From: a virus
Length of the DNA: 32,000 nt
IMG/VR virus record: IMGVR_UViG_3300045988_065417
Span: 1-32,000 of that record
Strand: one strand, 5' to 3'
Below are positions 2,655 to 25,277 of this stretch, piece after piece (within the stretch, counting starts at the first letter, position 1; each line of letters opens with the position of its first letter). The notes under the pieces are model-generated. The model was not told the DNA's origin, ran no database searches, and worked only from the letters and a program-made list of their open reading frames with translations. The position numbers and the translations under genes were made by a program.

Positions 2655-2921
2655 TTATTTTTCTTCAGTAGCGCCTTCAACAAACCTTGTGAAAGCTTGG
2701 TGCATACCTGTACTAGCTAATCCCATCAATGCACCATAAACTGCATTTTCGATTGACATACCACTAACCGCTAGGTTTAGCACCAATCCAGTGAATGCAA
2801 GTACTGATGGAATATATTTATTAGGGAAACTTGTGAATGACGTTTTCAAAATGTAACCTACGATTAAACAGGCTACTACAACCACCAAAACAAAATATTT
2901 ACTTAAATCTACAAAATCCAT
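2655..2921 (-). CDS. Holin (small multi-TM protein, Hol44/phage_holin_5-like)
   Basis: 88 aa with hydrophobic segments, the motif NKYIPS and a charged C-terminus (EGATEEK). SD GGAGGA upstream. Positioned upstream of the endolysin. Confidence 0.75.
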   Translation of the reverse strand: MDFVDLSKYFVLVVVVACLIVGYILKTSFTSFPNKYIPSVLAFTGLVLNLAVSGMSIENAVYGALMGLASTGMHQAFTRFVEGATEEK

Positions 2922-2944
2922 TTTTTATTCCTCCTATGTCATAT

Positions 2945-2970
2945 ATAAAAAGGCTAGATATTCTAGCCTT
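2945..2970 (-). terminator. Intrinsic terminator between XkdX and holin
   Basis: Palindrome AAGGCTAGA-tat-TCTAGCCTT followed on the minus strand by TTTTATATAT. Confidence 0.6.
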
Positions 2971-2971
2971 C

Positions 2972-3097
2972 TTAATAATTTTCACCAGTGATTTTTTTAT
3001 ACTGATCAGTCGTAATGATTCCTTTTTCACAGAATTTTCTTACCTGCTTATCTGTATATAGTTTTAGATCATAAAATCTTTTGATTTTTTCAAACAT
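2972..3097 (-). CDS. XkdX-family small phage protein (41 aa)
   Basis: Not in the ORF track. MFEKIKRFYDLKLYTDKQVRKFCEKGIITTDQYKKITGENY matches the XkdX pattern (Y..g.yt...v..fv.kg.IT..qY..ITGe.Y). Typical position between fibre and holin. Confidence 0.7.
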   Translation of the reverse strand: MFEKIKRFYDLKLYTDKQVRKFCEKGIITTDQYKKITGENY

Positions 3098-16462: not shown

Positions 16463-18058
16463 TCATTCCTCCACCTTAGGCTTTTCTTCACTTACAGTAT
16501 ACTCTTGATTTTCCTTAAAGTAAACCTTTGTTATACGGCCCTTTTTTTCAGCTTTTTCTATTTGTTTTTGTCTCATAAATTGTCCAGTAATAATTGAATG
16601 AAATTTTTCGTTGCCCCCTGTTGATAGTTTCAATGTTATTTTTGCATTGTGGTCATCCAGTTTTTTGACTACCCATCTTGTGTTTTCTTTTCCATTTTCA
16701 ATGTACACAGCGTCTGGATCAGTAAGAATACTAGGTAAATTTTTTACGATAGCATCCACCGCTTCAGGGTGACTTTCTTTTATGTGCTTTTTCCTTTCAT
16801 CCATCAAAATTACTTTTGAACTAGAGCCTTCTGGTGCCTTATATTTAGAAGAGTCTATATTACACAGAACTTCGTATTTTGGTATGTCTGTATTCGTTTC
16901 TTTATCGCTTACTTGTGCATTGGCCTTTGTAGTAACTCGTTTCTTCGGTATTCTTACAGGCTTGTAAGGTCTGCCCTTTGTTCCGCCTATCTTCTCGGCT
17001 GAGTAATCTCGCTTCAGATACCCGTTAGAAGCGTCCACAAGCTCTTTCAGTCTCATCTTGTTGTATTTATACCAGTAGTCCTCTTTTGTCGTGTCTAGCC
17101 CTGCTGCGGCTTTCACACGTCGCTCTCTGTCCCACTTTCTCATGTTTCTTTCGTAAGACCTTTGCTTTTGCTCCATCTGGTATATTCTGTCATTTTCTTT
17201 AGGATTTACAGGCTTGTTGTAATCCTCACTTATTCCTGGAAAGTATGCGGTAAATGAATGCCTACAGTTCCACCCGCCAAGTCCTGCACCTGTTCCGTAT
17301 CCTGTGGCCTCATAAAAGTTCTCGTAATTTCCTTCCGGATAGTTTACCCAGAATACTTTTCCTTGCCAGGCTGCGTGGCTTGGTCTGGCTCCCATGTGGG
17401 CACTTGTCTGTACTAGATTTATATCTAGCTCATCAATGACCGATTTCTCGCAAGCCAGGGCGTTCTGGTTTACTGCGGTTCGTACTGCCAATCGAACGGC
17501 CGCCTCGATTGATCGTTGAGCACCGCTTGGGTAGGATACTTTTGTTAGGCCTTCTTTGCATAGCTTATCTATTGTGTTTGCGGTCGCTTGATCTAGTGAG
17601 TAAGCTCCGCTTGATACCTGAAGATAAGCCATGTCATAGTATCTCATAAAAGTGTCGCTAGCCAGTTGAGCTGTGGTCCTTGTAAGGTTCTGGATGTCTC
17701 CCCACAGTGCTGATGTTCCTTTTTTGATCTGATTCGAAAATTCTAAGCCGCTTGTGTCGTATCCTCCAGCCTCTAGTCTATCGAAGGTATCACGGATACT
17801 TTTATAAGCGCTCTGTTGCATGATCCGGTCGACTTCTTCTTCGGAAGTGTGTAGTATCTCAGCTAGTCTTTTATTAATCCAGTCTTGCTGGAGTCCTAGC
17901 TGCTTTAGCTTGTTGTTTAAATACTCCGTGGTGCTTGTCATAGCGTCCTGATTCATCTTGATCCGCTCCGCTATGTCCACCAGTATTTCTGTGGCCAGTT
18001 CCTGATACAGCTTTTCTAGGTCGTCACCTACGTTCTGTAGGTAGTTTGGTTCTAGCAT
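16463..18058 (-). CDS. Minor head protein (MuF / SPP1 gp7 / minor capsid protein 2-like) fused to a C-terminal PBECR-like nuclease module
   Basis: 531 aa after the portal. The N-terminal part has ...GLGGWNCRHSFTAYFPG... The C-terminal ~135 aa (KVILMDERKKHIKESHPEAVDAIVKNLPSILTDPDAVYIENG...) resembles phage Barnase-EndoU-ColicinE5/D-RelE-like (PBECR) domains. Confidence 0.8.
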   Translation of the reverse strand: MLEPNYLQNVGDDLEKLYQELATEILVDIAERIKMNQDAMTSTTEYLNNKLKQLGLQQDWINKRLAEILHTSEEEVDRIMQQSAYKSIRDTFDRLEAGGYDTSGLEFSNQIKKGTSALWGDIQNLTRTTAQLASDTFMRYYDMAYLQVSSGAYSLDQATANTIDKLCKEGLTKVSYPSGAQRSIEAAVRLAVRTAVNQNALACEKSVIDELDINLVQTSAHMGARPSHAAWQGKVFWVNYPEGNYENFYEATGYGTGAGLGGWNCRHSFTAYFPGISEDYNKPVNPKENDRIYQMEQKQRSYERNMRKWDRERRVKAAAGLDTTKEDYWYKYNKMRLKELVDASNGYLKRDYSAEKIGGTKGRPYKPVRIPKKRVTTKANAQVSDKETNTDIPKYEVLCNIDSSKYKAPEGSSSKVILMDERKKHIKESHPEAVDAIVKNLPSILTDPDAVYIENGKENTRWVVKKLDDHNAKITLKLSTGGNEKFHSIITGQFMRQKQIEKAEKKGRITKVYFKENQEYTVSEEKPKVEE

Positions 18059-19614: not shown

Positions 19615-20844
19615 TTAAGTACTCCTTCCTGTGATCAGGTCCATATATGTCGACCAACTATAAAAGTGGGCGTCGAATGTATCGACGTCGGTTGTAAAGT
19701 CATCCAGAATCTTATCTTCCTTCGATTTTGTATCGTATAAAGCTGTGCTCAAACTTTCGACCACCATAGGTACTGCCTGGAACTTCATCTTGTGTCGGTT
19801 CAGCAACATGTTGTAGGTCAGAATACGTGTCTTTCCGTCTATCTTGCGGCAATCCATCACATTGGTTGGAAAGCCTGCCCTTTGTACGGCTACTCGTATA
19901 CTGTTCAAAATGACTTGTTCTGCGTTATCTACAAAAACACTTGATACCACAAATCCTTGAATCCATAAAGCTCTGATCAGGTCGACTGTCTCTGTGCAAA
20001 GTCTTTCGGCATCTATAGTTCCTTTAGCGTGTACTACTTTACGTTCTGCAAAGGTTACAATCTCAGAAAGGTCTGCAGTGATCCCCGTTACGATCAGGCT
20101 ACTATGTGAACGTGTTCCACCTATGTCCAGGCCTATGTTGATCATGTTAAAAAGTGGAAGTTCTCCTTTGACTTCCCACTCGTCTGGATTGTCTGCAAAC
20201 TGTGGAAAGAGTAGCCCTTCCGCGTTGCACCATTCTCCCAGTATGTATCTGTTGTATAGGACTGTCCCTCGATATTCGAGTTTCAAGTTTTCCACGAATT
20301 CCTGCGGCAGAAACGGGTTGTCCTCAATCGTATATTTCTGGCGGAAGATGTCGGCTCCTGATTCTAGAAACTTTAGAAACCAATGGTTCTTGTTGTCCGG
20401 GTTGCATGTTCCGTCAAAGCAGCTATACGGTTTATCTAGACGCGATTTTAGCATGTCAAATACTTTCTTATTCCAGGTTACGACTTCATCCCCGTAGCAG
20501 TACGCTACTGAGGCCCCTTGTATCTTTGTTACCTGGCTTTCTTTGTCTGCGCCTATTGCGTAGCAGTTACGGCCGAATAGTCGCACAGTGTTGTCTGGTC
20601 TTACTCTTCCAACTAGTTCAGGGCCATACAATTCTCGCATGGGTTCTAGAACGTTTCTTTCAAGTGTTGACTTTGTGTTTCCTATGAGGAACACGTGGCC
20701 TGGAAGGCCCTCTATAGCTCGAATACGTTTCGGGATGATGTAATAGTCCAGCCACGTCTTTCCGCTACGTGTAGCCCCTTCTTTTATGTTCCAGCGGCTT
20801 GGTTTATGATTCCAGAACTCTTTCTGTTTCTCAGTCAGTTCCAC
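19615..20844 (-). CDS. terL: Terminase large subunit (PBSX-family type)
   Basis: 409 aa. Walker A GATRSGKT near the N-terminus. Overlaps the TerS stop. Confidence 0.9.
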   Translation of the reverse strand: MELTEKQKEFWNHKPSRWNIKEGATRSGKTWLDYYIIPKRIRAIEGLPGHVFLIGNTKSTLERNVLEPMRELYGPELVGRVRPDNTVRLFGRNCYAIGADKESQVTKIQGASVAYCYGDEVVTWNKKVFDMLKSRLDKPYSCFDGTCNPDNKNHWFLKFLESGADIFRQKYTIEDNPFLPQEFVENLKLEYRGTVLYNRYILGEWCNAEGLLFPQFADNPDEWEVKGELPLFNMINIGLDIGGTRSHSSLIVTGITADLSEIVTFAERKVVHAKGTIDAERLCTETVDLIRALWIQGFVVSSVFVDNAEQVILNSIRVAVQRAGFPTNVMDCRKIDGKTRILTYNMLLNRHKMKFQAVPMVVESLSTALYDTKSKEDKILDDFTTDVDTFDAHFYSWSTYMDLITGRST

Positions 20845-21334
20845 TGTTGTCTCCGGCTACTGTGTCCATAGCTTTCAGTAAAAGATCCAGTTTCGTAATC
20901 TCTTTAGAAGGGTCTCCTTGTCTCTTGATCTGTTCAGCTTGTGCGTTCATCAGCTTCGTTCGGGCTCTGTCTAGACTTGTGACTGGTTGCTGTCCTGTAA
21001 GGTCTCGAATGAATTCTGCAGCCCTTACGTCTCCGCGTGTGGCTTTGTTGAACATGGTTGCGGCTAAAAGCATTTGATTGCTGAGCTCATCATCTTCTAA
21101 TCCCATGTCGATCAGCTTCTCTTTATTTCTTTCGCTTGGCTCCAACTCTAGGATTGCCGCCAGGCATTGTTTCAACTTCTTTTTCTTTTTCTGGACTTTC
21201 TGGCTTGCGGCTCCGCCTTTGCGTCCCATCTCTGCTGCATTCTCTTTCGTGAAAGGCTTCAGGTTTTGCATAGGGTCTTTGCGCTGTCTGGCCGCTTCGC
21301 TTTTTGTACGTCCGGCTAATCCCTTAGCAGGCAT
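20831..21334 (-). CDS. terS: Terminase small subunit (putative)
   Basis: 167 aa basic protein (NLKPFTKENAAEMGRKGGAAS...ATRGDVRAAEFIRDLTG) overlapping the TerL start by 14 nt. Confidence 0.6.
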   Translation of the reverse strand: MPAKGLAGRTKSEAARQRKDPMQNLKPFTKENAAEMGRKGGAASQKVQKKKKKLKQCLAAILELEPSERNKEKLIDMGLEDDELSNQMLLAATMFNKATRGDVRAAEFIRDLTGQQPVTSLDRARTKLMNAQAEQIKRQGDPSKEITKLDLLLKAMDTVAGDNSGTD

Positions 21335-21579
21335 CTGATATCAGCTCCGCCTGTTCTCCGGTGTAATCTTCCCAGCGCTTGATAACTACATCGGCAAAGT
21401 GTGGATCATACTCCATCATGAAGCACCTCCGTCCTAGCTGTTCGCAAGCCATAAGCGTGGAGTCTGAACCTCCGAATAGGTCCAGCACGTTTCCTCCATT
21501 TCGGCTGCTGTTCTTGATCTGTCTTGCAATCAGTGGAATTGGTTTCATGGTTGGATGTTCTTATGTCTTTAATGTTCAT
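21324..21579 (-). pseudogene. Remnant of a beta-class N6A/N4C DNA methyltransferase (C-terminal third only, frame broken)
   Basis: Frame A: EHPTMKPIPLIARQIKNSS..VLDLFGGSDSTLMACEQLGRRCFMMEYD (HPTxKP plus FGGSxST motif I). No DPPY motif. A native-looking SD plus ATG at 21579 (MNIKDIR) is in another frame, and a TAA sits 4 codons before MKP. Confidence 0.65.
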
Positions 21580-21600: not shown

Positions 21601-22194
21601 TAAAAAAGAAGCGTTAGCAGCTCAGTGTTCTCTCCAATGAGAGGTCTATCCTGTTTAGCTTCTAAGGCTTCTTTGTTGTCTATGATTACCCGGAGCGCTG
21701 AAAAGAAGATAAAATTTATGTCCATGATTTGTCGTAGCTGATGTTTGACGTTGTCTGGAAAGCACTCGTTTTTTTATAAAGGAGGACGCTCCGGGTAAAA
21801 GAAAAGGGGCCCTTTTCTATCGGTCCTCTTTTACAAGTACTAATATACCACTTTAAAGTGGTACACAGTGGGAACTCTTTAGCTTTTTGTGAGCTTTTTT
21901 ACTTCCGCCATCAGATGTTTATATAGTCCTCGTCTACTGTGCCTCAAGTTTAGCTGCATGAAGGGTTGCTACTTCTTCGAGCTTGTTTCCTAGCTGATCA
22001 CGTTTATAGATTTCTCCTGATGTCATCTGTAGCAGCTGACCGCATAGCACTCCAGCGTTGGCTGCTAGCAATGATTCGTTGTTATCTAGTTCCAGAACCT
22101 TCTCACGTTTGAAAGCGTGGTATTCTGTCATCGCTTTTTGAGGTAGCTCGATTGATTTTTTTAAGTACTGAACCGGTTGAAGTTTGTCAACAGT
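21601..22194 (-). pseudogene. Remnant of a phage SNF2-family helicase (inter-lobe segment readable, remainder decayed)
   Basis: Open frame 22194-21934: ...IELPQKAMTEYHAFKREKVLELDNNESLLAANAGVLCGQLLQMTSGEIY...LHAAKLEA matches the linker pattern of phage SNF2 helicases (aanaavl..kLlQ...GavY...h..Kl.aL). It has no N-terminal ATPase lobe. Downstream only broken frames remain. Confidence 0.5.
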
Positions 22195-22325
22195 CTAGAT
22201 GCAAGTGTTCTTGCCGAATGGTCATTCTTAATGTTAGGATATGCAACTTTGTATGCTCTTGTTGCATTCAAATCAATCAAATACTCGTCAACAAATAATT
22301 TCTGCTTTTCTGTCAATTTAGCCAT
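22161..22325 (-). pseudogene. N-terminal fragment (54 aa) of a Terminase_2-type small terminase, with an intact SD
   Basis: Not in the ORF track. MAKLTEKQKLFVDEYLIDLNATRAYKVAYPNIKNDHSARTLASRLLTN then FNRFST-stop. Matches the LTxKQxxFxxEYxxxxNAtxAxxxAGYSxKtAxxxaSRLLxN signature. SD AAAGGAGGA upstream. Confidence 0.65.
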
Positions 22326-22365: not shown

Positions 22366-22707
22366 TTAATGCCCTTTCCATCCTTTTCTTGGTGAGCCAG
22401 CTCCTCTTACCCACAATTGATCTACTTCTTTTGCTATTTGTCTTTTTCGACGACGTTGTTCTGAATCTTTATTAGCTAAATCTCGGCTTGTAAGCTTTTG
22501 TACTTTATAACCCATAGATTTTGCCCTAGAAGCTATATCGGATAAGGTCCTAGGAATTTCCCTACTTCCACTATCAGCAAATGATGCACCGGAAAAAGAA
22601 AATACTTTCTTTCCTTTTTGCCTATACTCAAATACAGTTCCATCTCCTGTGGTAACAGTTAAACCAACTGTCCCCCCCCGATTTACATATTGGCCTCTTC
22701 CACCCAT
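22366..22707 (-). CDS. Small basic protein starting MGGRG (113 aa), unknown function
   Basis: SD AAGGAGGA 9 nt upstream of the ATG. Gly-rich N-terminus and a basic C-terminal tail (RRRKRQIAKEVDQLW). Confidence 0.6.
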   Translation of the reverse strand: MGGRGQYVNRGGTVGLTVTTGDGTVFEYRQKGKKVFSFSGASFADSGSREIPRTLSDIASRAKSMGYKVQKLTSRDLANKDSEQRRRKRQIAKEVDQLWVRGAGSPRKGWKGH

Positions 22708-22732
22708 ATAATATTTCCTCCTTATTCATGTA

Positions 22733-22764
22733 TAAAAAAAGCACCTTGAATTAACAAGATGCTT
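22733..22764 (-). terminator. Intrinsic terminator immediately upstream of the 113-aa gene SD
   Basis: Minus strand AAGCATCTTG-ttaatt-CAAGGTGCTT (10 bp with one G-U) followed by TTTTTTTAT. Confidence 0.7.
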
Positions 22765-22893
22765 AGATAGCGTTTAAAATTTAAACTGATATTTTTTAAT
22801 AAATCGAAAAGGCGCTCCGATTCGAACGGAGGTTTCCTCAGTGCATATCGTTTTGTGATATGCATGCATCAAAGTGTAATCACCCCTATACGA

Positions 22894-23292
22894 CTACCTT
22901 TTCTTATTTTTATTTAACCATAACCGTTTTACACGGTCAACCATTTTCCTTTCCTCTGCAGTCAAGTTTGTGGCACCTTTTTTCCCGTCACGTTCAGAAT
23001 GATAATAACCATGATGAGTATGTGGCTTCATATTTTGATGATCATGTGTTAAATCAATCTGTTTTGTACGTTTATTTGAATTGTCATAATAAGAAATTGA
23101 TGAAATTTCATCTTTATCATTTACTGTGGCATATACTCGCCCTCTGGTCATCGTTTCCATCGGAGCTTTTGCATTACTAGCATTGGCTTGCTTCACAAAT
23201 TTAATATTTCCACTCTGATAAACTGTATTGTATTCGCTCCCATAAGGCTTTCCACTGTCACTGACACCGCTGCTTGCTCCTCTACCGCCCAT
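22894..23292 (-). CDS. Small His-rich protein starting MGGRGASSG (132 aa), unknown function
   Basis: The start overlaps the DUF4417 stop by 11 nt. Motifs NIKFVKQ, RVYATVN, DLTHDHQNMKPHTHHGYYHSE. Basic tail EERKMVDRVKRLW. Confidence 0.65.
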   Translation of the reverse strand: MGGRGASSGVSDSGKPYGSEYNTVYQSGNIKFVKQANASNAKAPMETMTRGRVYATVNDKDEISSISYYDNSNKRTKQIDLTHDHQNMKPHTHHGYYHSERDGKKGATNLTAEERKMVDRVKRLWLNKNKKR

Positions 23293-23920
23293 GTTTTCTT
23301 GCCCTCTCTATAACTTTATTTTTATAATAAATAACTTTTGTTCCTTTGAAATCATGTTCAATAGATTGGCCATAAATTAGAATTGCAGTAGGTTTAAGCT
23401 TATCAATCATGTAATCTACACCATCTTTCCAAATGGATCTAGCATATTCATCCTTAATACATCCAATAGTTGAGATTGCCACAATACCCCCTGGTTCAAT
23501 GCCATCAAAACAGAATGTGTATGTTTCTCTTTCGGCCCAGGAAACTGTTGGAATCACACATATTCCTTGACTCTGAAGGTATTGCCCAATTAATCTACTT
23601 CTATAGATATTCCATACTTTCATAGCTCTAGGCATATCCATATAAAGAGAAAAGTCTGGTGTAAGAACACAGTCATACTGTTTTAAGACATTCACATATC
23701 GTTCGGGAGTGTTCCAAATGCGCTCAAACTGATAATCATCAATAAACATATGAATTCCAGATTGATAATTCTTTGAAGAAATTGCTTCATTGAATCCAAT
23801 TAACTCATTAGGAATATGAAGTGTCTTTTTAATTACTGGCATTTCAAATGGACCGTCTGCTTCATATGGATCATATAAATCTAGATTGTATTTTTTGATT
23901 GTTAGTTCTCTTCCTGGCAT
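23282..23920 (-). CDS. DUF4417-family protein
   Basis: I prefer the ATG at 23920 (SD GGAGGTG). MFIDDYQFERIWNTPERYVNVLKQYDCVLTPDFSLYMDMPRAMKVWNIYRSRLIGQYLQSQGICVIPTVSW matches the DUF4417 signature as I recall it. Confidence 0.75.
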   Translation of the reverse strand: MPGRELTIKKYNLDLYDPYEADGPFEMPVIKKTLHIPNELIGFNEAISSKNYQSGIHMFIDDYQFERIWNTPERYVNVLKQYDCVLTPDFSLYMDMPRAMKVWNIYRSRLIGQYLQSQGICVIPTVSWAERETYTFCFDGIEPGGIVAISTIGCIKDEYARSIWKDGVDYMIDKLKPTAILIYGQSIEHDFKGTKVIYYKNKVIERARKHGR

Positions 23921-23941
23921 AGAACACCTCCTTTCTTGCAT

Positions 23942-23966
23942 AAAAAAAGCCAAGACCTCTGTCTTG
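23942..23966 (-). terminator. Hairpin plus T7 immediately upstream of the DUF4417 SD
   Basis: Minus strand CAAGAC-agag-GTCTTG followed by GCTTTTTTTAT. Confidence 0.5.
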
Positions 23967-24087
23967 ACATAATTTCTTATGGTATTAGTTTACCACTTAT
24001 TCAAGTACACAGTGTGCACCAATATAATAAAAGCCCATTTACCGGCTATATATATGGACTTATTCTTTATATATAATATTATTCTAA

Positions 24088-24222
24088 TTAGATTGTATAG
24101 TTAATCTTGTTTGATTTCGGATCAACATAAAATCTAAAAGCTTTCTTACCGTAATCTTTTGCGTAATACGTTACGCCATCACGTGTAAAGTGAGTACAAA
24201 AAATAACTTTTTGTTGCTTCAT
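24088..24222 (-). CDS. Small ORF (44 aa, MKQQKVIFCTHFTRDGVTYYAKDYGKKAFRFYVDPKSNKINYTI)
   Basis: Not in the ORF track. Strong SD AAGGAGGA 8 nt upstream of the ATG at 24222. Basic and aromatic-rich. Confidence 0.45.
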   Translation of the reverse strand: MKQQKVIFCTHFTRDGVTYYAKDYGKKAFRFYVDPKSNKINYTI

Positions 24223-24398: not shown

Positions 24399-24923
24399 CT
24401 ATTTTTTAAAATTTTCAACTTGTATCTTTGCACATTGCCAAGATACTTTACAATTTTTCACGATATCATTTGCACTCATATTTTTTACTAAATCCATAGG
24501 AACTAAAAGCTCAGCTGCAAATGTATTTGCTTGCCATTCCGGGTTTATATAGAACGGAATTTCTTCGTTTGCTCTTGCAAAACGAATGTGATTCGCCGTA
24601 TGGAAAAGGTAATGAAACAATTCATGCGCTAACGTGAATCTAGATCTCCCGTCTCCATTAATTGCTTTTTCGTAAACGTCTGACCGCACTACCATCTCAT
24701 GAGTATCAGGATATGTTATAGCGTAATGTCCAGGTGTGATTTCATCTGGCTCAACAATACTCAGAGAAAATTCTTCATCAATTGTTGGCAACACAACATC
24801 AAGAAACTTAACTATCAGAAAACAATATCCCTTAATATTGAAAATTTTTCTAAGTCTTTTAGCAATTAATCGAATCTCATTTCTTGACAAACCATCCGCC
24901 TGGCACATTGTACTCATAAGCAA
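24399..24923 (-). CDS. ImmA/IrrE-family (COG2856) zinc metallopeptidase
   Basis: 174 aa. HEXXH motif in TLAHELFHYLFH, and a downstream EWQANTFAAELLVP motif. Its start abuts the XRE stop. Confidence 0.85.
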   Translation of the reverse strand: MLMSTMCQADGLSRNEIRLIAKRLRKIFNIKGYCFLIVKFLDVVLPTIDEEFSLSIVEPDEITPGHYAITYPDTHEMVVRSDVYEKAINGDGRSRFTLAHELFHYLFHTANHIRFARANEEIPFYINPEWQANTFAAELLVPMDLVKNMSANDIVKNCKVSWQCAKIQVENFKK

Positions 24924-25277
24924 CTAATCCTCCTTTAATACTTTTTCAATAGCTTTGATTTGATTCTCTGTTAATGAATCAAACTTTCGAGCAAAAGCAT
25001 TGGCTAAGCCAGCTAAATCAGCATCTTTCCCAATCAGATTTATATTCACGTTCTGTTTAGATAAATCCGCTGCTTTTTCCAGATTTTCTATCTCATTCTG
25101 TGAAAGACTGTATAAAGAAGTTAATGAACTAATAAAAGATTTTGGAATTGCTTTTTTTCCATGCTCAATCGCAGATAAATACGATGATTTCACACCTAAA
25201 CTATCCGCCATTGTTTTTAATAGTTCTCCTCGATCTAAACGAATTTTTCTGACTTCCTTCCCAAACGCTGTAAGCAT
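24924..25277 (-). CDS. XRE-family helix-turn-helix transcriptional regulator
   Basis: 117 aa. FGKEVRKIRLDRGELLKTMADSLGVKSSYLSAIEHGKKAIP is a canonical HTH_3 sequence. SD GGAGGA. Confidence 0.85.
   Translation of the reverse strand: MLTAFGKEVRKIRLDRGELLKTMADSLGVKSSYLSAIEHGKKAIPKSFISSLTSLYSLSQNEIENLEKAADLSKQNVNINLIGKDADLAGLANAFARKFDSLTENQIKAIEKVLKED

Follow-up and report, generated by a model that had tools for sequence, protein, structure and literature searches.

The 32,000-nucleotide stretch of viral DNA analysed here (positions 1 to 32,000 of the IMG/VR virus record IMGVR_UViG_3300045988_065417, referred to below as the window) carries, next to its terminase genes, a cassette composed of a gene for a DUF4417 protein, two genes for small proteins of 132 and 113 amino acids that begin with the same GGRG peptide, and a tRNA-like RNA encoded largely in the spacer between these two. 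We report that in many phages DUF4417 is genetically locked to this conserved N-terminal peptide (the tag, or handle), which is borne by interchangeable domains (the cargos), some of them toxin-type, and we propose how such a module might work. The locus lies on the minus strand, from which all genes of the cassette and of the window are read, and comprises the following features (the L and P numbers used below for loci and proteins are our own):

23949..23968, minus strand: terminator-like hairpin followed by a U-run, just 5' of the DUF4417 ribosome-binding site (consensus scan, pattern match only).
23282..23920, minus strand: DUF4417 protein of 212 amino acids (Pfam PF14386; ATG at 23920 with an AGGAGG ribosome-binding site).
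22894..23292, minus strand: 132-amino-acid GGRG-handle protein, phrog_9479 (PHROG match, E 8.5e-57).
22796..22905, minus strand: tRNA-like RNA of the Rfam SpF41 family (own covariance model R1, 59.2 bits).
22739..22764, minus strand: intrinsic terminator 3' of the tRNA-like RNA (10-bp stem, then TTTTTTT).
22366..22707, minus strand: 113-amino-acid GGRG-handle protein (ORF with an AAGGAGG ribosome-binding site and an MGGRG start).
22672..22679, minus strand: G8 homopolymer in codons 10-12 of the 113-amino-acid gene, of a length that varies between relatives.
22161..22325, minus strand: remnant of the original small terminase gene, 54 amino acids, at which the cassette ends downstream (partial Terminase_2 match).

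A preliminary description of the window had recognised the same three open reading frames (ORFs), and its layout holds: the stop of DUF4417, which has 212 rather than 213 residues, overlaps the start of the 132-residue gene by 11 nt, and both small proteins begin MGGRG. A 223-residue version of the DUF4417 ORF with a TTG start was rejected because it extends into the terminator hairpin. The spacer between the two small genes measures 186 nt, and the terminase stump begins 40 nt past the end of the second. The cassette had also been said to be bounded by terminators; the upstream hairpin is there (4 GC pairs in an 8-bp stem, then TTTTTTT, in the consensus scan) and none follows the 113-residue gene.

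The likeness between the two small proteins is confined to their start. When the 113- and 132-residue families were compared with hhalign, residues 1-12 (MGGRGxSSGxxx) alone aligned, with a probability of 89.5%, and BLASTP gave an E value of 0.2, which is not significant. The similar basic tail first ascribed to both proteins is therefore abandoned, and the idea that they are alternative cargos on common handles survives for the N-terminal handle and not for the C-terminal one. Using a detector of ORFs beginning (M or leader)GGRG, we collected some 163 cargo clusters, a crude number that is biased by the retrieval of the loci, over which the tag reads G-G-R-G-[A/G/S]-S-S-G with GGRG invariant. 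The tag is preceded by Met only in 107 of these clusters and by a Prp-like leader in 40, and leader forms such as MVENLQFF'GGRG, MKLNLQLF'GGRG and MVMNLQYF'GGRG occur in both families. These leaders fit xx(D/N)LQ(F/L)F', as in the motif MLxx(D/N)LQ(F/L)F'A at which the Firmicute protease Prp cleaves ribosomal protein L27 (PMC9405229). Both proteins of the window lack such a leader and begin directly with MGGRG. The mature N-terminus of the handle proteins is probably a free GGRG, generated by removal of Met before Gly or by Prp cleavage.

Genes with this handle accompany DUF4417 well beyond the window. Among 80 loci retrieved by DUF4417 alone, 73 had, on the same strand and no more than 1.6 kb away, handle ORFs (one in 42 loci, two in 25 and three in 6), and five of the seven loci that did not are relatives of the window with a frameshifted G-tract. 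In a strand control covering 424 kb of related loci, all 112 handle ORFs detected belonged to the gene strand, the opposite strand having 0; in the 32-kb window, read on both strands, the handle ORFs are exactly the 132- and 113-residue genes. A scan of IMG/VR for NLQxF-GGRG, with DUF4417 kept out of the query, returned at least 120 contigs. Among the matches listed, the motif stood at the extreme N-terminus of a small protein in 118 of 120, DUF4417 was found in 84 of 120, on the same strand at a distance of up to 1.5 kb and usually directly abutting, and the sequences behind the motif formed about 39 unrelated clusters. The internal NLQNF-GGRG of PolA-like proteins in L219 and L272 was counted as chance. 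The pairing of DUF4417 with MGGRG genes that had been noticed in the window is thus a recurrent one. The preliminary description had also placed GGRG linkers in some large MuF or polyvalent proteins, and this was not borne out, there being no NLQxF-GGRG inside a MuF protein among the 120 matches listed. Nor was any fusion of DUF4417 to a cargo seen in which the handle is retained, the only fusions being tag-less deletion products, which fits a need for a free N-terminus.

What lies behind the handle is highly diverse. Pfam matches among the cargos include ADPrib_exo_Tox at 56.8 bits (E 2.4e-15; another copy scored below the threshold) and Gln_amidase (Papain fold toxin 1, a glutamine deamidase) at 57.1 and 45.3 bits (E 4.8e-15), and other cargos carry HExxH or HxHP motifs; zincin-like domains are also represented. 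These matches uphold the earlier suggestion that the small proteins belong with effector modules. One conserved N-terminal module is combined with many unrelated C-terminal domains, several of them toxin-type, as in polymorphic toxins; at the position where an immunity gene would be expected in such a system, the 132-residue family is followed by the tRNA-like RNA and not by an ORF. The reading that we tentatively prefer, and to which we give somewhat less than an even chance, is that the cassette is one case of a widespread two-part polymorphic effector system of Bacillota and Coriobacteriia prophages, in which DUF4417 would read or modify the GGRG tag.

The first cargo of the window, which reads MGGRGASSG...PHTHHGYYHSE, belongs to a common type. 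Its family comprises more than 1238 homologues in a database clustered at 90% identity, or 483 clusters at 50% identity, nearly all of them free-standing proteins of about 130 amino acids. The sole recurrent Pfam match is Ntox24 (PF15529), which is hit by 21 of 34 close members and, in a more diverse set, by 14 of 64; the best E value is 1e-7. Ntox24 is described as all-beta, with Y, H and H conserved, and is predicted to be a metal-independent RNase; it has been reported on toxins of type V and type VII secretion systems (T5SS and T7SS), on MuF toxins, and in toxin-antitoxin (TA) systems (Zhang et al. 2012, PMC3482391). The earlier supposition that the 132-residue protein contains a MuF-linked domain is upheld to this extent. 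Residues G5, Y17, G18, R52, Y54 and H91 are invariant in the family, H85 and H93 reach a conservation of at least 90%, and an AlphaFold2 (AF2) model (predicted local distance difference test, pLDDT, 73) shows a six-strand beta meander followed by a C-terminal helix, so that both the model and the conserved residues agree with the published description of Ntox24. Neither a fold search of the PDB with the model nor a profile search against PDB sequences gave a significant match. The family appears to be a divergent Ntox24-like domain, and presumably an RNA-targeting one. The possibility that it mimics ribosomal protein L27 was rejected, since no L27 fold match was obtained and the resemblance of RGASS to KGVSS is too short.

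In 30 GenBank phages, among them Streptococcus A25, Str01, phiNJ2 and Javan prophages, Dorea DO134P1 and Roseburia Jekyll, the gene for the 132-residue protein adjoins DUF4417 or a ParB-DUF4417 fusion (annotated there as 'DNA modification methylase') just upstream of the terminase. Of 80 IMG/VR loci retrieved with the profile of the 132-residue family, 77 had DUF4417 on the same strand no more than 2.5 kb away, in about 25 of these 77 downstream rather than upstream, and DUF4417 was near the 132-residue gene in 67 of 80 loci from species-representative genomes, several of the misses being truncated contigs. The hosts of the latter are Lachnospiraceae, Oscillospiraceae, Ruminococcus, Streptococcus, Erysipelotrichaceae, Veillonella and Eggerthellaceae/Coriobacteriia. 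Two chimeric proteins (P0250 and P0307) combine ParB, alone or followed by the first ~30 residues of DUF4417, with residues ~27-130 of the 132-residue family; they lack the GGRG tag and look like deletion fusions across the gene pair.

The position of the 132-residue gene immediately upstream of terS, seen in the A25, Dorea and Roseburia phages and in relatives of the window, would also be expected if the His-rich 132-residue protein were an accessory nuclease of packaging, comparable to the HNH proteins encoded beside terS and terL in cos phages, and the remainder of the cassette were made up of unrelated neighbours. Its conserved cluster of His residues (H85, H91, H93, H94 and H98) and a near-invariant N127 in the helix that follows would suit such a role. 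We regard it as highly improbable: there is neither an HNH Pfam match nor a PDB fold match, the neighbour that is conserved, in either order, is DUF4417 and not terS, and in the window the terminase is a dead remnant whereas the cassette is intact. A packaging nuclease would, moreover, leave unexplained both the RNA embedded in the gene and a tag shared with toxin-domain proteins.

The spacer that follows the 132-residue gene had been described as structured, and this was confirmed by a folding z-score of -4.4 and by the identification within it of a specific RNA. The Rfam family SpF41 (RF02435), catalogued as a streptococcal small RNA (sRNA) of unknown role, scores 32.7 bits in the window against a gathering score of 52, a low value that is due to a 28-nt insertion. 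Directly after the 132-residue gene of the phages A25, Dorea DO134P1 and Roseburia Jekyll the same model scores 99.6, 71.8 and 53.5 bits, respectively, and the Dorea copy, alone among them, also passes the cut-off of the Rfam tRNA model (RF00005) with 32.6 bits. Thirty-four diverse copies were aligned (alignment A5) and our own covariance model, R1, was built from the alignment. It describes a cloverleaf with an acceptor stem of 7 bp, D and third stems of 4 bp each, and a T stem of 5 bp that closes a GGUUCGAAUCC-type loop; the third arm, with a stem of 4-5 bp, ends in a tetraloop (GAUG, GUUU or GNRA). Pairing is possible in 87.6% of the cells of the alignment, as against 36-46% in controls with the partners shifted a few columns along, compensatory changes are seen in 18 of the 20 pairs, and the covariation score is 0.51 versus about 0.1 in the shifted controls.

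In the window, R1 aligns from end to end at 22905-22796 (59.2 bits, E 2e-12), the 28 extra nucleotides forming an additional hairpin within the third arm, and it finds the RNA after the 132-residue gene in 74 of 80 IMG/VR loci. RNA and gene are physically interlocked: the 5' strand of the acceptor stem coincides with the last codons of the ORF, and the TAG stop lies inside a conserved GUAGU at the junction of acceptor and D stems. Terminators equivalent to that at 22739-22764 are likewise found behind the RNA in other phages, among them A25 and the Dorea phage. The window RNA is thus a divergent member of the SpF41 family, and the present data set that family in a different light from the Rfam entry, as a phage element with a tRNA-like cloverleaf that overlies the stop codon of the 132-residue gene and extends well beyond Streptococcus. 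The RNA accompanies the 132-residue family only and never other types of cargo. In six loci of window relatives (L096, L097, L099-L101 and L104) the 132-residue gene is cleanly gone, while DUF4417, the RNA and the 113-residue gene are kept.

Two other explanations of the RNA were rejected. A true tRNA, or a tRNA fragment of the attP type, is at odds with a negative ARAGORN search of the window, with the lack of an anticodon loop and with a covarying cloverleaf that lies far from any integrase. A U-G-U in the third arm, as the target of an enzyme resembling tRNA-guanine transglycosylase (TGT), does not agree with an arm that is a tetraloop hairpin, often of GNRA type, with no conserved UGU. Some further variation of the element was recorded in passing. 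Relatives of the window in L050, L068, L088 and L091 have a variant 132-residue gene and no detectable RNA; two tandem, diverged copies of the RNA occur in L024 (2885-3037), in L038, L041 and L048 (~2885-3041), and in L140 and L156; and in Dorea DO134P1 a genuine tRNA-Met (L001:4499-4570) follows the tRNA-like element.

The second cargo of the window, the 113-residue protein, belongs to a rarer family that ends in LWVRGAGSPRKGWKGH. Searches of Pfam, PHROG, PADLOC and NCBIfam returned nothing for it, tblastn against phages and a profile search against PDB sequences were likewise negative, and no close relatives were found in GTDB genomes. Homologues were nevertheless recovered (P0001-P0006), and distant members adjoin DUF4417 in ten loci (L004-L008, L051, L113, L178, L226 and L291; alignment A6), in the order DUF4417, 113-like gene, 132-like gene, RNA in L004-L008 and 113-like gene, DUF4417, 132-like gene in L113. 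Near the start of the gene lies a homopolymeric G-tract whose length differs between near-identical relatives (G7 in 7, G8 in 15, G9 in 10 and G10 in 1), and G8 alone keeps the MGGRG reading frame; two of the database proteins (P0002 and P0003) are frameshifted readings of this gene. The tract could be a phase-variable ON/OFF switch of the second cargo, or else a homopolymer assembly error.

An ON/OFF tract is typical of contingency loci and, together with the strict tie of the RNA to one toxin family and its retention as an orphan, would suit a TA, abortive-infection or superinfection-exclusion module acting in the lysogen, with the GGRG proteins as toxins, DUF4417 as a universal antitoxin that sequesters the tag, and the RNA as an antitoxin similar to those of type III. 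The gene order, with an upstream partner, an overlapping start and a small toxin, is TA-like, and Ntox24 itself is also found in TA systems (PMC3482391). We nonetheless consider this explanation quite unlikely. PADLOC recognised no defence-system component in any of the three proteins, and the cassette lies in a late operon beside the terminase genes and behind a terminator, not at the position of a moron expressed during lysogeny. In type III systems the RNA antitoxin is an array of repeats that precedes the toxin, an arrangement not seen here, and DUF4417, which is often fused to ParB, has the conservation of an enzyme.

DUF4417 of the window matches PF14386 over the entire profile (positions 1-183 of 183; E 1.1e-76, 256.8 bits against a gathering cut-off of 28.9), as well as phrog_8680 and phrog_940. 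The best non-self PDB fold matches of its AF2 model (pLDDT 88.9) are TGTs, with Foldseek probabilities of 0.94-0.99, and the best matches in BFVD are phage proteins named 'queuine tRNA-ribosyltransferase', of the DpdA type, with probabilities of 0.99-1.0; TMq ranges from 0.46 to 0.55 (0.46-0.53 for the PDB matches) and E from 2e-3, as seen in BFVD, to 6e-3. A profile search against PDB sequences was negative. The modelled structure is therefore closest to an alpha/beta fold of the TGT/DpdA type, and we do not file the protein as a TGT, because no TGT relation is apparent from its sequence and the Zn motif is absent. Invariant acidic and polar residues of the DUF4417 family include H57, D61, D62, D89, S91, E130, C137 and D139, a pattern that is that of a predicted enzyme or a tight ligand pocket, and H57, D61, D62, D89, E130, C137 and D139 are candidates for catalytic residues equivalent to those of TGT. 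Most DUF4417 homologues are ParB-DUF4417 fusions, which are enriched in phages among the ParB-CTPase fusions of unknown function (bioRxiv 10.1101/2025.10.10.680097). Full-text literature searches found no functional study of DUF4417, SpF41, Ntox24 or GGRG strings.

The combination of a TGT-type fold with a ParB-fold NTPase in phage-borne genes recalls the DpdA/DpdB pair, in which DpdB, a ParB-fold ATPase, works with the TGT-like DpdA in the insertion of 7-deazaguanine into DNA (PMC10164549). DUF4417, with or without ParB, might accordingly be a base-exchange enzyme or glycosylase that modifies phage DNA or tRNA and counters restriction at packaging, the GGRG proteins serving as accessory or specificity subunits. 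That TGT and DpdA head the fold matches in two libraries (PDB and BFVD), that the ParB fusions mirror DpdB plus DpdA, that the module lies upstream of terS like phage fusions of ParB to methyltransferases, and that a methylase fragment occupies the equivalent place in the exchanged module of the window all speak for such an enzyme. However, the proposed subunits share no more than a 12-residue tag and yet bear unrelated toxin domains (ADP-ribosyltransferase, deamidase), no genes for 7-deazaguanine or preQ0 synthesis are visible in the window, and DUF4417 has neither a TGT sequence signature nor a Zn site. Its domain of 183 amino acids is also much smaller than DpdA, with no sequence homology and no Zn subdomain, and the GGRG partners have no Dpd counterpart. 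We judge this alternative to be unlikely, although it has a real chance of being correct.

Returning to the two-part effector system that we prefer, its mechanism might be as follows. The first part would be DUF4417, an enzyme-like protein of TGT/DpdA-type fold that often carries a fused ParB NTPase; the second would be one to three small proteins whose sole common trait is the GGRG[AGS]SSG N-terminal peptide. Either loss of the initiator Met would expose the tag or, as expected for about one cargo type in four, an L27/Prp-type leader would be cleaved off. DUF4417 would then bind or chemically modify the free GGRG, an acidic pocket of the guanine-binding type reading the guanidinium group together with the alpha-amine, and would license or load the cargos as late-expressed effectors. 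Delivery would most likely be by the virion, as for MuF-fused toxins, with which the cargos share a domain repertoire and a genomic neighbourhood. In the window, the first cargo would be the common Ntox24-like domain, with the RNA over its stop codon at the place of a polymorphic toxin's immunity gene, and the second the rarer 113-residue protein, whose expression would depend on the length-variable G8 tract. Since a conserved partner appears to read a conserved tag, DUF4417 would not be an immunity protein specific to one cargo. The RNA may be a decoy, a neutraliser or a processing signal specific to the Ntox24-like cargo; alternatively, it might be an RNase P/Z processing signal that strips the stop codon from the mRNA. 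We favour a decoy or neutraliser because the RNA stands at the place of an immunity gene and is kept as an orphan. Orphan immunity genes are often retained, and the loci that have the RNA without the 132-residue gene would be a parallel.

A stronger version of this mechanism, which we hold to be very doubtful, makes DUF4417 a double-displacement enzyme of the TGT type, or a Cys/His ligase, that joins the free GGRG covalently to a nucleic acid or a head protein. The nucleophile would be the guanidinium group of Arg4 (in place of guanine) or the alpha-amine, and the target could be phage DNA, reached through ParB near pac/terS, the tRNA-like RNA or a head protein; such coupling would be the post-translational counterpart of the genetic fusion found in MuF toxins, and the effectors would travel with the genome. 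A variant in which GGRG proteins hitchhike on internal DNA sites was set aside, since steric constraints at the portal make it unlikely, and survives only as a component of the covalent version.

Several points count against the tag-reading effector system. The contact between DUF4417 and the handle is one that we infer. The similarity of DUF4417 to the TGT fold is modest (TM about 0.5, with the E values given above), sequence-level homology to TGT was not found, Pfam returning DUF4417 only, and the CxCxxC Zn motif is absent, the protein having four scattered Cys. The window's own 132-residue protein scores 14.6 bits (E 0.04) against Ntox24, for which the cut-off is 24, and the RNA was undetected for 6 of the 80 132-residue genes. 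Some handle genes are located behind the endolysin at the end of a prophage, at a distance from any DUF4417 in view: in seven loci (L172, L184, L187, L190, L206, L230 and L257) a GH25 endolysin is closely followed by Prp-leader handle genes, sometimes two in tandem, and the retrieved flank, at which these loci are truncated, contains no DUF4417. Virion proteomics data were looked for and none were found. The handle proteins with a leader, as putative Prp substrates, have Gly at P1', where the published motif has A.

Polymorphic phage effectors as such are of a known kind; the tagging principle, the partner protein and the RNA component are new. The closest comparison is with MuF toxins (Jamet et al. 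2017, PMC5576092) and polyvalent proteins (Iyer et al. 2017, PMC5512222), which are likewise found in temperate phages of Bacillota, are encoded in or beside the packaging and head-morphogenesis module, and share a repertoire of ADP-ribosyltransferase, papain-fold deamidase, zincin and Ntox24. Unlike MuF toxins, the cargos described here are free-standing proteins with an 8-12-residue GGRG peptide and no MuF domain, and DUF4417 is separate; neither DUF4417 nor the tag is mentioned in those two studies. The MuF protein of a close relative of the window (L010:3522-4940) has LDLQLFA, an L27/Prp-type site, between its MuF domain and a C-terminal domain of ~110 amino acids, which suggests that host Prp may also release MuF-fused cargo.

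A conserved partner gene directly upstream of effectors is also known from type VI secretion systems (T6SS; Eag/DUF1795 and DUF4123) and from T7SS (Lap/LXG). Like these adaptor-effector pairs, the present module has an upstream partner, a conserved effector N-terminus and swappable toxin domains. The partner here is, in contrast, enzyme-looking, with a TGT-like fold, invariant acidic and polar residues and ParB fusions, and the effector N-terminus is a short peptide that apparently needs to be free, with delivery proposed to be by the phage particle.

The internal proteins and Alt of phage T4 carry an N-terminal capsid-targeting sequence that is removed by the prohead protease. Both systems thus have short N-terminal signals that are processed (here putatively) and that stand on unrelated small proteins, including an ADP-ribosyltransferase; the T4 peptide is removed, whereas GGRG would remain after the proposed processing by host Prp or by methionine aminopeptidase.

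The surroundings of the cassette indicate that its present downstream neighbours are not the original ones. The terS remnant aligns to positions 1-43 of 141 of the Terminase_2 profile only, and an intact terS of 165-175 amino acids occupies the equivalent position in relatives. After the stump comes the C-terminal fragment of an N6/N4 DNA methylase (21324-21548, minus strand), followed by a different putative small terminase (20831-21334, phrog_2412) and then by the large terminase, TerL, and GC content steps from ~0.35 to ~0.45 near 22 kb. Truncated terS, methylase fragment and GC step are the scar of a replacement of the packaging and structural module. In the close relatives L009-L011 the 113-residue gene is followed by an intact terS, a Terminase_3-type TerL, an SPP1-type portal and MuF, and this arrangement, together with the GC step, makes the cassette the last element of the native left arm. 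The preliminary description had placed it in a moron hot-spot and had called it AT-rich; it is instead a conserved late-operon module that adjoins terS in many phages, and its GC content of 0.35-0.38 agrees with the 0.31-0.36 found throughout the early arm. A megablast search with the region returned no match among GenBank phages.

Other observations on the neighbourhood are recorded here for completeness. An overlapping pair of genes for an ImmA/IrrE-type M78 peptidase and an XRE-family helix-turn-helix protein (24399-25277, minus strand) stands directly upstream of the cassette, a late-strand position that is unusual for such a switch module, and a 44-residue ORF between this pair and DUF4417 (24088-24222) is conserved in the relative L009. 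The same relative also carries an inserted IS91/Y2-family transposase (L009:2458-3849), which separates the tRNA-like RNA from the 113-residue gene. Further downstream, the window encodes a MuF-like minor capsid protein 2 (16463-18058, minus strand; Phage_min_cap2, E 1e-86) with a C-terminal extension of ~190 amino acids, which matches MuF_C below the threshold and contains an HIKESHPE motif that resembles those of PBECR-type nuclease domains; on this extension the phage may carry a MuF-fused effector as well.

The module is carried by prophages of gut Lachnospiraceae and Oscillospiraceae, of oral and pathogenic streptococci (A25, Str01 and Javan phages) and of Coriobacteriia, and few domains of unknown function are joined to ParB in phages as commonly as DUF4417. 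As the S. pyogenes phage A25/A1 and the Dorea phage DO134P1 are culturable, the hypotheses are directly testable. Should the proposed system prove correct, DUF4417, phrog_9479 and the Rfam 'sRNA' SpF41 would all find their place in a single system, the essential Firmicute protease Prp would have a wider range of substrates, and a tractable tRNA mimic paired with a putative RNase would become available. The pattern (M or Prp leader)GGRGxSSG beside DUF4417 would then be a rule by which effector and toxin domains could be mined, and temperate phages would have a new route for deploying swappable toxins, by means of a minimal N-terminal tag and a dedicated partner enzyme.

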